Of a stretch of 64,000 bases of DNA, positions 28,779 to 30,906 are shown piece by piece. Numbering within the stretch: position 1 is the first letter of the stretch; each line of letters begins with the position of its first letter. The notes under the pieces are model-generated. The model was not told the origin of the DNA and did not search any database. It saw only the letters and a list, made by a program, of their open reading frames with translations. The translations under genes and the position numbers were made by a program. The stretch is from Paenibacillus silvisoli. Its GTDB lineage: Bacteria > Bacillota > Bacilli > Paenibacillales > Paenibacillaceae. The stretch is from the NCBI RefSeq assembly GCF_030866765.1, contig NZ_CP133017.1:973091-1037090 (forward strand), in the 5' to 3' direction.

Positions 28779-29606
28779 CTATGAAGTTAGCTCCTCATCC
28801 CCCTCCGCACTAACCCCATAACGCTCCAAAGCCTTCGTCGAAGACTCAAGCATCCGCTTTTTCAAATACTCCGCTTCTACCACCCGAACCCGTTTCCCAA
28901 GAAACCGGATCTTGGACAATAAATACTCCGCTTCATCCTTAAGCAGCGAAACGCGGACCAGATAAGTATCGTTCATCGTATCGTACTCCACGTTCTTCTC
29001 GAAGCTGGAGAAGGCGTACAGAATTCGAGACAATTCCTCGTTATACTGACGGACAATTTCAATGACCGCTTCGCTTTTGCGCGATTCAAGCGTTTTTCCG
29101 ATCCGCCCCAGGATGCTCTCGGCCGTTGACGGATCAACCAATTCCGCGTCGACGGAGTGGATCTTTTTCAGCCGGGTGCTCATAAAGGTACGATACCGAG
29201 CGTGGTACCAGAGCAAGTACCATTCTCGCTTGACCATGGAGTACTCCAGTTTATACGGAAGCCCCAATTGCTCCGAATACACCTGCCCGCCCTTAATTTC
29301 GTAGGTGATGCGGATGCCTGCCTTATTCATGATGTGCCGGCGCAAGGGCCGCAGGAGCGGGTGGTAGACCTGCCGTTCCATGGTACGAGCCTTCTCGATC
29401 AAGTGGAGAGAACTATCCGTAACCTCATCCGGCTCAAGGACAGCCCGAAGCTTCTCCAACGTGTCCGGGGTGAAGGCATCTGCCGTGGCGGGATGCTCCA
29501 TCATCGTCTTGAGCCATGCCCGCTCGTGCGAGGTGACCATGAATGTACCGGAATCCTCCAGCCGGGAGATGATCTGGTGATTAAAGATTTTCTCAAACAG
29601 ATGCAT
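28779..29606 (-). CDS. WYL-domain protein (second of a tandem WYL pair)
   Basis: WYL signature KREWYLLWYHARYRTFMSTRL. ATG at 29606 overlaps the end of the upstream WYL gene by 14 nt, consistent with translational coupling. Confidence 0.65.
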   Translation of the reverse strand: MHLFEKIFNHQIISRLEDSGTFMVTSHERAWLKTMMEHPATADAFTPDTLEKLRAVLEPDEVTDSSLHLIEKARTMERQVYHPLLRPLRRHIMNKAGIRITYEIKGGQVYSEQLGLPYKLEYSMVKREWYLLWYHARYRTFMSTRLKKIHSVDAELVDPSTAESILGRIGKTLESRKSEAVIEIVRQYNEELSRILYAFSSFEKNVEYDTMNDTYLVRVSLLKDEAEYLLSKIRFLGKRVRVVEAEYLKKRMLESSTKALERYGVSAEGDEELTS

Positions 29607-30906
29607 AGTAGGACTGAATCTCCTTCCATTCGGCAATCATTTCCCGGCGGAACGAAATGGGCTCCAACACCTCGCAGCTGGAACCGAAGCTCCGCAGCCA
29701 CGGCTTAATTTCCGTAGTCCCATTCACGGTAATCTCATAAATAAAGGAATGCTCCTCTTCCTCTACAATCTGTCCCCATTGCCCCTGCAGCATGACCCGC
29801 TCTCTGACGAAATTCGGTTCGGAGGAGCCCTCCGGATTATAAAATCGGGCGCGTACCGTCACCGGCCTTCCGGTATCGATCAGCCAGCTGTACCGGATTT
29901 TCTCCGCAAGCTCGCTCTTCTTCTCCTCATGCAAAACCTCATCTACCGCTTCATCCTCTTCGATTTGCGTAATGCCTTCCATCCGGTATTTTCGAATCCC
30001 CTCGCGTCCATGGGAAAGCAGATACCATCTCCCATATTGATGGTCATAGACGATTTTGAGCGGCAGCGTCTTTTCGGCTTTGCCCTGCGTCTTGCGTTCA
30101 AACAGGGGATTGGTATTTTTGGAGGCGTAGCTTTTTTCGGATTTGGGCGAGAAGTACAGGAAACGAACCTTGCGGCGGAGACGGATGGCATGAAGGAGCG
30201 TGAACAGATGCGCCTCATCCAAGATCCGCGAGTAGTAGTGATATTTATATAAATAGGGTTCGACCGCATAAGGCTCCGCCTGATTGCGCAGCAAATGCTT
30301 CTTGAGTCCATCGCGCAGCAGATAGCCTTGAACGGACGGGACCTGCGTGTTCGCCATCACATCCACGAAATCATACAAATCGATCAGCTCATCATCGGAT
30401 AAGCATCGGACCAAGTCGTCTTGGATGCGATATCGGTAGGGGCGGGGGCCAGGCTCCCTCTGAATCACGCCGACCTCCTCCAAATACTTGAGGTCCGATC
30501 GCACAGTTTTCTCATCCGGCAACGGGAACTCGGAAGGCAGACTGCTGCAGCACGTATCCAGAAGCTCCATTGCAGTCAAAGCTCGTTCATTCAACGCGGC
30601 CATCAGCAGCGAGATGCGCTGGCTTTCGGATTCCTTCACGGATTTAGCGCGGAATAGAAACAAGAGCAGCGGGTCGGTCGAGTCATAGTAGCTAAAACGA
30701 ATGGTCTCTGACAACTCCTTGCTCTGTTCCTGCGGCAAATGCTGATGTACGGAGCTTACGACCTCTTTGAGCCGGCGGATCGTTTTATCGAAGGTGTGGA
30801 CGGAGATGCCCAGTCGTTCGGCGAATTGCTGTCTACTGAACGCTCCGCTTGTCAGCACCAGCATACGCAGAAATTGAATTTCTTTATCAAAGCTTTCCTT
30901 GGCCAA
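29593..30906 (-). CDS. HTH-WYL-WCX transcriptional regulator (BrxR/CapW/PafBC-like)
   Basis: N-terminal HTH QFAERLGISVHTFDKTIRRLKE. WYL signature DHQYGRWYLLSHGREGIRKYRM. C-terminal WCX-like extension. Divergent from the SPFH-NTase-RtcB operon. Confidence 0.7.
   Translation of the reverse strand: MAKESFDKEIQFLRMLVLTSGAFSRQQFAERLGISVHTFDKTIRRLKEVVSSVHQHLPQEQSKELSETIRFSYYDSTDPLLLFLFRAKSVKESESQRISLLMAALNERALTAMELLDTCCSSLPSEFPLPDEKTVRSDLKYLEEVGVIQREPGPRPYRYRIQDDLVRCLSDDELIDLYDFVDVMANTQVPSVQGYLLRDGLKKHLLRNQAEPYAVEPYLYKYHYYSRILDEAHLFTLLHAIRLRRKVRFLYFSPKSEKSYASKNTNPLFERKTQGKAEKTLPLKIVYDHQYGRWYLLSHGREGIRKYRMEGITQIEEDEAVDEVLHEEKKSELAEKIRYSWLIDTGRPVTVRARFYNPEGSSEPNFVRERVMLQGQWGQIVEEEEHSFIYEITVNGTTEIKPWLRSFGSSCEVLEPISFRREMIAEWKEIQSYYASV

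Follow-up and report, generated by a model that had tools for sequence, protein, structure and literature searches.

We analyzed a 64,000-nt stretch of the Paenibacillus silvisoli genome (hereafter, the window), in which two overlapping minus-strand genes, named here A and B, encode WYL-domain proteins and lie divergently from an RNA-repair operon. The products of both genes are annotated P. silvisoli proteins (100% identity and coverage). Relatives of B were sought by a back-translated pattern scan with one genome per species, and 259 genomes were found to encode one. Counts of genome loci rest on the best 80 of these 259 genomes, almost all of them Paenibacillaceae (Paenibacillus, Gorillibacterium, Fontibacillus and Gordoniibacillus), together with the P. 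beijingensis locus L001, which makes 81 loci. The order and overlap of the pair were counted in the 80 loci that contain both A and B (L001 and 79 scanned loci), and the upstream operon in the 78 loci with at least 1.5 kb of sequence upstream of A. Families were scanned for domains using 32 homologues of A and 32 homologues of B, and the Pfam cut-offs were 25 bits for HTH_11 and 21.8 bits for WYL. A metagenome scan for the candidate operator described below (the box) returned 107 stretches, of which 80 loci were examined. The labels L and P with a number denote related loci and proteins of this analysis, respectively.

Gene A (positions 29593-30906, minus strand) starts with a TTG codon and encodes a 437-aa protein that combines a helix-turn-helix (HTH) domain of the HTH_11 family, a second, putative winged HTH, a helical linker, and the WYL and WCX domains. 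The Pfam matches comprise HTH_11 at residues 10-48 (26.5 bits), WYL (PF13280) at residues 233-316 (29.3 bits), WCX (PF25583) at residues 348-430 (53.2 bits), and a weak second HTH (HTH_DeoR) at residues 132-151; the protein also contains the motif GRWYLLSHG. The HTH_11, WYL and WCX domains were matched in all 32 homologues of A, and HTH_DeoR in 29 of them. The AlphaFold2 (AF2) model of A consists of an N-terminal helical HTH, a helix-helix-helix-strand-strand unit at residues 92-161, the helical linker, WYL and WCX. Since the N-termini of the AF2 models of both A and B are poorly predicted, the assignment of the second winged HTH is left to the Pfam matches within the family and to the secondary structure of the model. 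The Foldseek matches of the A model are headed by DriD and PafBC, and also include CapW and BrxR. The protein is 75-91% identical across Paenibacillaceae.

Gene B (28779-29606, minus strand) encodes a 275-aa protein from an ATG codon at position 29606, which lies 14 nt within gene A and has an AAGGAG ribosome-binding site 13 nt upstream. The protein has a helical N-terminus, a WYL domain and a WCX-like domain, and no HTH. Its sole Pfam match is WYL at residues 84-152, the score of 20.0 bits being just short of the cut-off; the motif REWYLLWYH is present, and in the B family WYL was matched in 32 of 32 members (best E 5e-6). None of these 32 members matches any HTH family in Pfam. Pfam does not match WCX in B; for residues 178-262 a beta-alpha-beta fold is predicted, and the model can be aligned with the C-domain of DriD (7tzv_M, template modeling score 0.64, target-normalized), so that a WCX-like C-terminal domain would be visible at the fold level only. 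In the AF2 model, residues 97-155 further form a beta-rich WYL core; the Foldseek matches of the model are, in order, DriD (isolated C-domain included), PafBC, BrxR and CapW. An exhaustive HMMER search with B yielded 163 cluster representatives, among which the distant relatives of 320-340 aa align to residues ~20-264 of B only from their own residue ~85 on. As these longer relatives align to B only past their HTH, B can be described, judging by the alignments, as a YafY-like protein minus the N-terminal HTH. In profile searches, neither the A nor the B alignment retrieved a solved WYL protein from the PDB at E <= 1, and by this measure each of the two proteins is a divergent subfamily.

Gene A lies directly upstream of B on the same strand, and the two coding regions share the sequence ATGCATCTGTTTGA, a 14-nt overlap that was read directly from the sequence and recurs in 80 of 80 loci. 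More distant relatives of B, with 26-40% identity (four loci), again have an overlapping gene upstream, the overlaps ranging from 8 to 32 nt; this gene is A-like by its WCX match in L082 and L085, the remaining two contigs being too short for a judgement. A natural fusion was also identified, the 790-aa protein P0222 (L193:5996-8368), whose residues 14-422 match all of A (hhalign probability 99.7%, E 3e-26) and whose residues 547-768 match B (probability 97.9%, E 5e-13). Since conserved translational coupling together with gene fusion is the classic signature of the subunits of one complex, A and B are predicted to form a heterodimer.

It could be argued instead that a homodimer of A alone is the factor, B being a separate WYL protein with a role such as that of an anti-activator, a buffer for the ligand or a protein that binds RNA. 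A holds every domain that a WYL regulator needs, and B has neither an HTH nor one of the conserved WYL arginines. However, the overlap is strictly kept in all 80 loci and recurs in distant relatives, A and B are fused in one natural polypeptide, B keeps a WCX-like fold, WCX being the dimerization module in DriD and PafBC, and the non-palindromic box ill suits a symmetric homodimer; a factor made of A alone thus appears quite improbable.

Another single-chain protein of about the same length (~790 aa), P0256 (L194:702-3077), has WYL and WCX visible only in its C-terminal half. No RNA-repair genes were found in the genomic context of P0222 or P0256; two S26-type peptidase genes adjoin the former. 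A very distant A/B-like pair (L085:6764-8795, plus strand), with an 11-nt overlap and a B protein of 26% identity, lies divergently to a type III-A CRISPR-Cas locus (cas6, csm genes and csm6), which suggests that the two-gene regulator architecture predates its link to RNA repair.

On the other side of A, the divergent operon (plus strand) begins with a gene for an SPFH/Band-7 protein (31443-32558; Pfam Band_7, E 1.7e-22), followed by the genes for RlaP, an RNA-ligase-associated nucleotidyltransferase of the Pol-beta type (32577-33395; Pfam RlaP, E 6e-99), and the RNA ligase RtcB (33361-34602; Pfam RtcB, E 4e-69). The latter coordinates are those of the longest open reading frame (ORF), and the true RtcB start may lie a few codons downstream of 33361. 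Homologues of RlaP have published biochemistry (PMC12776372). An RNA-repair operon occurs upstream of A in 73 of the 78 informative loci, and SPFH is the first upstream-operon gene in 19 of the 81. By gene clustering and Pfam analysis, three types of divergent operons recur: (i) SPFH, RlaP, at times a 540-aa protein, and RtcB; (ii) an orthologue of Ro60/Rsr (TROVE and vWA_Ro60 domains), RlaP and RtcB; and (iii) Hen1 and Pnkp. No Ro60 gene is present in the 64-kb window. The ~540-aa protein (cluster c5; for example L070:1423-3045, minus strand) has no Pfam or NCBIfam match, and is encoded between RlaP and RtcB or first after the box in 9 genome loci, and also in L086, L150 and L156.

Burroughs and Aravind (NAR 2016) are said to have described RNA-repair systems in which SPFH/Band-7 or Ro60 scaffolds are combined with cognate non-coding RNAs. 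The loci analyzed here resemble these systems, as they are reported, both in syntax (scaffold, RlaP and RtcB) and in the placement of a tRNA-like RNA by the Band-7 gene and of Y RNAs by Ro60.

An earlier interpretation made from the window without database searches (hereafter, the sequence-only reading) had described two adjacent minus-strand WYL genes that are translationally coupled with a 14-nt overlap and linked to a divergent RtcB operon. Both ORFs and both motifs were found as it described them, and the coupling and the link to SPFH, RlaP and RtcB are borne out by the comparative data given above. It had also assigned an N-terminal HTH and a C-terminal extension to A; these correspond to HTH_11 and WCX, with the correction that A carries two HTH-type domains. 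The domain search for WYL and WCX that it proposed recovered both domains in A and, at the family level, WYL in B.

The intergenic DNA between A and the operon is strongly conserved at the nucleotide level and includes the box, a candidate operator of 22 bp (30986-31007) that reads TCGTAATACTTTCGCCATGTTC on the operon (plus) strand and GAACATGGCGAAAGTATTACGA on the strand of gene A. Most of its positions are invariant in 85 instances (81 genome loci and the window). The window contains a single copy even if 6 mismatches are allowed, with 0 expected by chance. No palindromic or dyad symmetry was found in the box; its repeated element is the TCG triplet, at distances of 11 and 9 nt, an arrangement that would suit the two HTH domains of one A subunit bound to one face of the helix.

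Toward the operon, the 85 instances keep a fixed order of elements: the box, 9-10 unconserved bases, AAATRAG and GAWNAT. The corresponding promoter core predicted in the window (31018-31031, plus strand) consists of AAATGAG, a TRTG-like -16 region, and the -10 element GAATAT (31026-31031). Within GAWNAT the A at -11 is present in 85 of 85 instances and the T at -7 in 84 of 85; these two positions are the most characteristic of the sigma-A -10 hexamer. No -35 hexamer was recognizable at this promoter in the 85 aligned instances. Transcription of the repair operon would start near position 31038, and, as the distance to the GAWNAT -10 element is fixed, the box would extend from about -52 to -30 and be centered near -41. 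The predicted promoter of the A-B pair is the extended -10 element TGATACAAT (30940-30948, minus strand), which is conserved in related loci as ctgYTACAATgg and stays in place in L022 and L071, both of which lack the box. A simple sigma-70 promoter scan of the intergenic region gave nothing useful.

The box follows the repair operon and not gene A. In 70 loci its place is between A and the divergently oriented repair operon, and in three more (L028, L029 and L067) other genes split A from the operon and the box remains with the latter, while it is absent from all five loci that have no repair genes upstream of A; thus, it accompanies the repair operon in 73 of 73 loci, versus 0 of 5 without one. 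The distant SPFH-type locus L082, with a B protein of 40% identity, has a degenerate box.

Additional boxes were identified in several genomes upstream of other operons. These include Hen1-Pnkp in L006 and L033, a disrupted Hen1 cluster with KptA and TatD in L047, another RtcB in L073, and a ~695-aa protein in L042 (7707-9794, minus strand) and L062 (8833-10956, minus strand). The latter protein also stands behind the box in 10 metagenome loci (such as L091, L109 and L161); it has no Pfam match, and matches the NCBIfam model NF041916 (MXAN_6230/SCO0854 family RING domain protein) below the cut-off. This RING-domain protein may be a new member of the RNA-repair regulon. The second boxes in L034 and L067 adjoin genes for a MoxR-type AAA+ ATPase and a VWA-like metallopeptidase (DUF2201). 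Such MoxR-DUF2201 pairs (L034:344-3219 and L067:1765-4656, both plus strand; L006, right of 12241) constitute the far side of some boxes, and in L067 the genes stand in line as MoxR, DUF2201, A and B.

The 80 boxes examined in metagenomes have a uniform orientation and are located upstream of repair genes. The gene on the operon side is SPFH in 15 loci, Ro60 in 12, Hen1 or Pnkp in 10, the 695-aa protein in 10, and RtcB, RtcB2, RlaP or the 540-aa protein in ~17; in 10 loci this side is a contig edge, and in 6 there is no panel gene despite enough flanking sequence. About half of the boxes lack a panel gene on the other side, i.e., they are not next to A. Since the metagenome boxes precede repair operons, and about half of them do so away from A, the box appears to mark a multi-operon RNA-repair regulon.

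The orientation of these genes also bears on a different explanation of the box, namely that it is a promoter of an extracytoplasmic function (ECF) sigma factor directed toward gene A (GAAC-N15-CGAC). On the strand of A the box reads GAAC...CGA(C), superficially like the -35 and -10 elements of ECF promoters. However, about half of the metagenome boxes would then drive no panel gene, the A side of the extra boxes in L033, L047 and L073 faces an ORF on the opposite strand, and it is invariably the other side that holds the repair genes and the -10 element with its fixed spacing; in addition, ECF promoters have spacers of 16-17 nt, longer than the 15 nt of the box. The ECF promoter, which we rejected on gene orientation, is thus highly improbable.

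We consider it fairly probable that A and B constitute an asymmetric heterodimer, presumably an activator, through which an RNA-repair regulon is controlled in response to single-stranded nucleic acid, and the pair is likely the master switch of the box-bearing repair operons. In the proposed mechanism, A would supply all of the DNA-binding capacity through its two HTH-type domains, and B, having lost its HTH, would add a second WYL-WCX sensor module. The complex would recognize the non-palindromic box through A, at the place where the box overlaps the missing -35 region of the extended -10 promoter, and, when bound there, would most likely activate transcription of the leader RNA (described below) and the SPFH, RlaP and RtcB genes. 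Its further targets in these genomes would be the boxed Hen1-Pnkp operons, Ro60 with its Y RNAs, the second RtcB and the RING-domain protein. The two WYL domains would bind a single-stranded damage signal, RNA fragments or single-stranded DNA (ssDNA), and thereby switch the factor on.

Activation is favored over repression because the box is centered near -41, the promoter has no -35 element, the site is asymmetric, and the closest folds, DriD and PafBC, belong to activators. A repressor would occupy the -35 region of the repair promoters and be freed by the WYL ligand, in the manner of CapW and BrxR. The sites of CapW and BrxR are palindromic, unlike the box, as is usual for dimeric repressors, and a position near -41 upstream of a promoter without a recognizable -35 is the classic one for class II activators. 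On the other hand, CapW and BrxR are among the fold matches, WYL factors of conflict systems are treated as negative regulators in papers of the Aravind group (PMC9503650), and CapW is an ssDNA-sensing repressor (PMC11662680). On balance, repression by A/B seems unlikely.

The ligand of the A/B heterodimer would be fragments of damaged nucleic acid. Ligands reported for WYL transcription factors include ssDNA and c-di-GMP, and a paper of the Aravind group names RNA with cyclic phosphate ends as a possible signal for WYL factors (PMC9503650). A more specific version can be offered tentatively: A/B may be an obligate heterodimer, with one HTH lost and one gained, that acts as the master activator of a Gram-positive RNA-damage regulon and is triggered by broken RNA ends, possibly by fragments of the tRNA-like decoy RNA of the regulon itself. 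Under this version the regulon would possibly comprise RtcB, RlaP, SPFH, Ro60 with the Y RNAs, Hen1-Pnkp and the RING-domain protein.

Several points weigh against a heterodimeric activator acting through the box. Both AF2 models have modest confidence (mean predicted local distance difference test score 61 for A and 69 for B). The similarity between A and B is not significant by BLASTP or by hhalign (E 0.09), so that their paralogy is argued from architecture and fold. Of the two arginines at the end of the WYL domain of A (RKYRMEGI), one is kept in B (MSTRLKKI), and due to this loss B may not itself bind ligand; the single retained arginine is also a hint of non-equivalent WYL domains, as in PafBC. 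The overlap of the box with the -35 region would fit a repressor as well. Finally, we assign A/B to the box as the sole regulator consistently encoded beside it, a standard inference of comparative genomics, and another factor encoded elsewhere could bind the same site.

Among known systems, PafBC, the heterodimeric WYL activator behind the mycobacterial DNA damage response, is the closest in architecture. It consists of two adjacent WYL-WCX genes, to which A and B, with the putative WCX-like domain of the latter, correspond, and natural fusions exist in both systems (the fused PafBC of 6sj9, and P0222 here); it is a fold match for both A and B, and its target site, like the box, is asymmetric and takes the place of the -35 region. 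A single ssDNA strand runs across the two, non-equivalent WYL domains of PafBC (PMC11804915). However, an HTH is present in each PafBC subunit, as opposed to none in B and two in A, and the similarity to A/B exists at the fold level only, with none at the level of sequence profiles. Moreover, PafBC is actinobacterial and controls a DNA-repair regulon through a different promoter motif, whereas A/B belongs to a Firmicute with no Pup-proteasome locus nearby, is associated with RNA repair and has an unrelated box. The sequence-only reading had called the pair PafBC-like, which holds as an analogy and not as a family assignment.

In biological role, A/B resembles RtcR of Proteobacteria, a ligand-sensing regulator that is also encoded divergently from an RtcB operon, sometimes together with Ro60 and tRNA-like Y RNAs. 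The Salmonella Rtc system is induced by tRNA fragments (PMC7790460). RtcR combines a CARF sensor domain with a sigma-54 AAA+ activator module and an HTH and controls rtcBA or rsr-yrlBA-rtcBA, whereas Pfam finds only HTH, WYL and WCX in A/B; RtcR is sigma-54-dependent, whereas the predicted promoter at the box is of the sigma-A type and the box precedes several unlinked operons, including Hen1-Pnkp. The pair would be the Paenibacillaceae functional counterpart of RtcR, with PafBC as the closest system in architecture, and is a member of neither family because of the absence of CARF and sigma-54 domains, the HTH-less B, the lack of sequence homology, and the different host and regulon.

The Caulobacter protein DriD (winged HTH-WYL-WCX) is the best fold match for both A and B, and is likewise an activator triggered by single-stranded nucleic acid. 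It differs from A/B in being encoded by a single gene, in controlling a DNA-damage regulon, and in acting on a symmetric site as a homodimer. CapW and BrxR share with A/B the winged HTH-WYL-WCX fold and the position beside the regulated operon; they differ as single-gene homodimeric repressors of CBASS and BREX, and neither of these gene sets is present here.

In a literature search combining WYL with RtcB, RlaP, Hen1/Pnkp or YafY, no experimental study of the A/B pair was found. WYL factors are reported to regulate some RNA-repair pathways (PMC9503650). No description of the obligate A/B pair, the box and the joint regulon was found in the literature, the 2016 paper of Burroughs and Aravind standing outside this comparison.

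The way from sensing RNA damage to induction of repair is understood only for RtcR in enterobacteria, with no corresponding account for the control of RtcB, Hen1-Pnkp and Ro60/Y-RNA systems in Gram-positive bacteria. The locus offers a candidate regulator, a precise 22-bp candidate operator and a predicted multi-operon regulon, which makes the control of Gram-positive RNA repair testable. The pair would also extend the known architectures of WYL regulators, in that an asymmetry of the PafBC type has become fixed, with one subunit that has no DNA-binding domain. In addition, the RING-domain family and the 540-aa protein are placed in an RNA-repair regulon as its putative members.

Between the promoter and the SPFH gene lies a conserved, structured leader RNA (31061-31404, plus strand), which in the loci of the SPFH type spans ~350 nt. 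RNAalifold predicts 84 pairs in an alignment of 19 species; pairing holds in 96.9% of cells versus 36-47% with partners slid, and compensatory changes occur at 20 pairs versus 7.0 in shuffled alignments, a value matched by 0 of 500 shuffles. No intrinsic terminator was found ahead of the SPFH start. The leader has no matching Rfam family, either in the intergenic region at E <= 10 or in the window at gathering thresholds, with only a weak tRNA match; in particular, YrlA (RF02553) was not matched in the leader of the window even at E <= 10, and ARAGORN calls no tRNA in its native sequence.

By direct reading, however, a circularly permuted tRNA-like module can be discerned within the leader (31161-31223, plus strand). 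Its parts are a perfect T-arm (GGGGTTCGATTCCCC), an acceptor-like hairpin that is closed (AATCGC/GCGATT), a stretch resembling a D-loop, and an anticodon-like hairpin (CTCGA-CTTTTAA-TCGAG). After in silico re-permutation of the module, ARAGORN called a tRNA for 15 of the 19 species with a relaxed threshold and for 4 of them with the default one, versus 1 of 19 species in native order and 0 of 950 shuffles as controls. A T-arm is also present in the leader of the distant locus L082. A tRNA-like RNA has reportedly been predicted for SPFH/Band-7 repair systems by Burroughs and Aravind in 2016, and the leader is probably this Band-7-associated RNA.

In loci of the Ro60 type, the position of the leader is taken by two or three tandem YrlA-like Y RNAs with a T-arm and a D-arm, which match Rfam YrlA below the gathering score (40 bits, E 2.4e-7 in L012). 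The Y RNA stretch extends over ~450-600 nt upstream of Ro60 (rsr) in L002, L009, L011, L012 (4090-4600), L014, L016 and others, and spurious ORFs (cluster c6) are called over it.

Beyond B, the window contains a group of plus-strand genes (22063-28338) for an McrB-like GTPase (MrcB_N and AAA_5 domains), an McrC-like protein (DUF2357 and PD-(D/E)XK domains) and an NERD-HRDC protein. The sequence-only reading saw in A/B a PafBC-like pair next to nucleases and a damage-responsive switch for a local defence island, here taken to be these McrBC-like and NERD-HRDC genes. The nucleases do adjoin the pair in this genome, and the McrBC-like and NERD genes form a low-GC stretch (GC content 0.415-0.45 versus about 0.55-0.6 elsewhere). 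However, they lie beyond B on the downstream side of the pair, and have no box nearby even with 6 mismatches, the box being found only before the repair operon. Furthermore, no homologues of McrB, McrC, NERD-HRDC, an 83-aa ORF or a 918-aa repeat protein were found in the related loci, so that the nucleases are incidental and not conserved neighbors of the pair. A defence-island role of A/B is therefore extremely improbable, and the McrBC-like stretch was probably acquired recently as a type IV restriction module that has no relation to the WYL pair. A lipase and a glycosidase are encoded beyond B in P. beijingensis.

The 83-aa ORF (28403-28654, plus strand) is convergent with gene B and has no Pfam or NCBIfam match. 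The gene for the 918-aa protein (34726-37482, plus strand) directly follows RtcB, and its product consists of dozens of short repeats of the SHAEG type.

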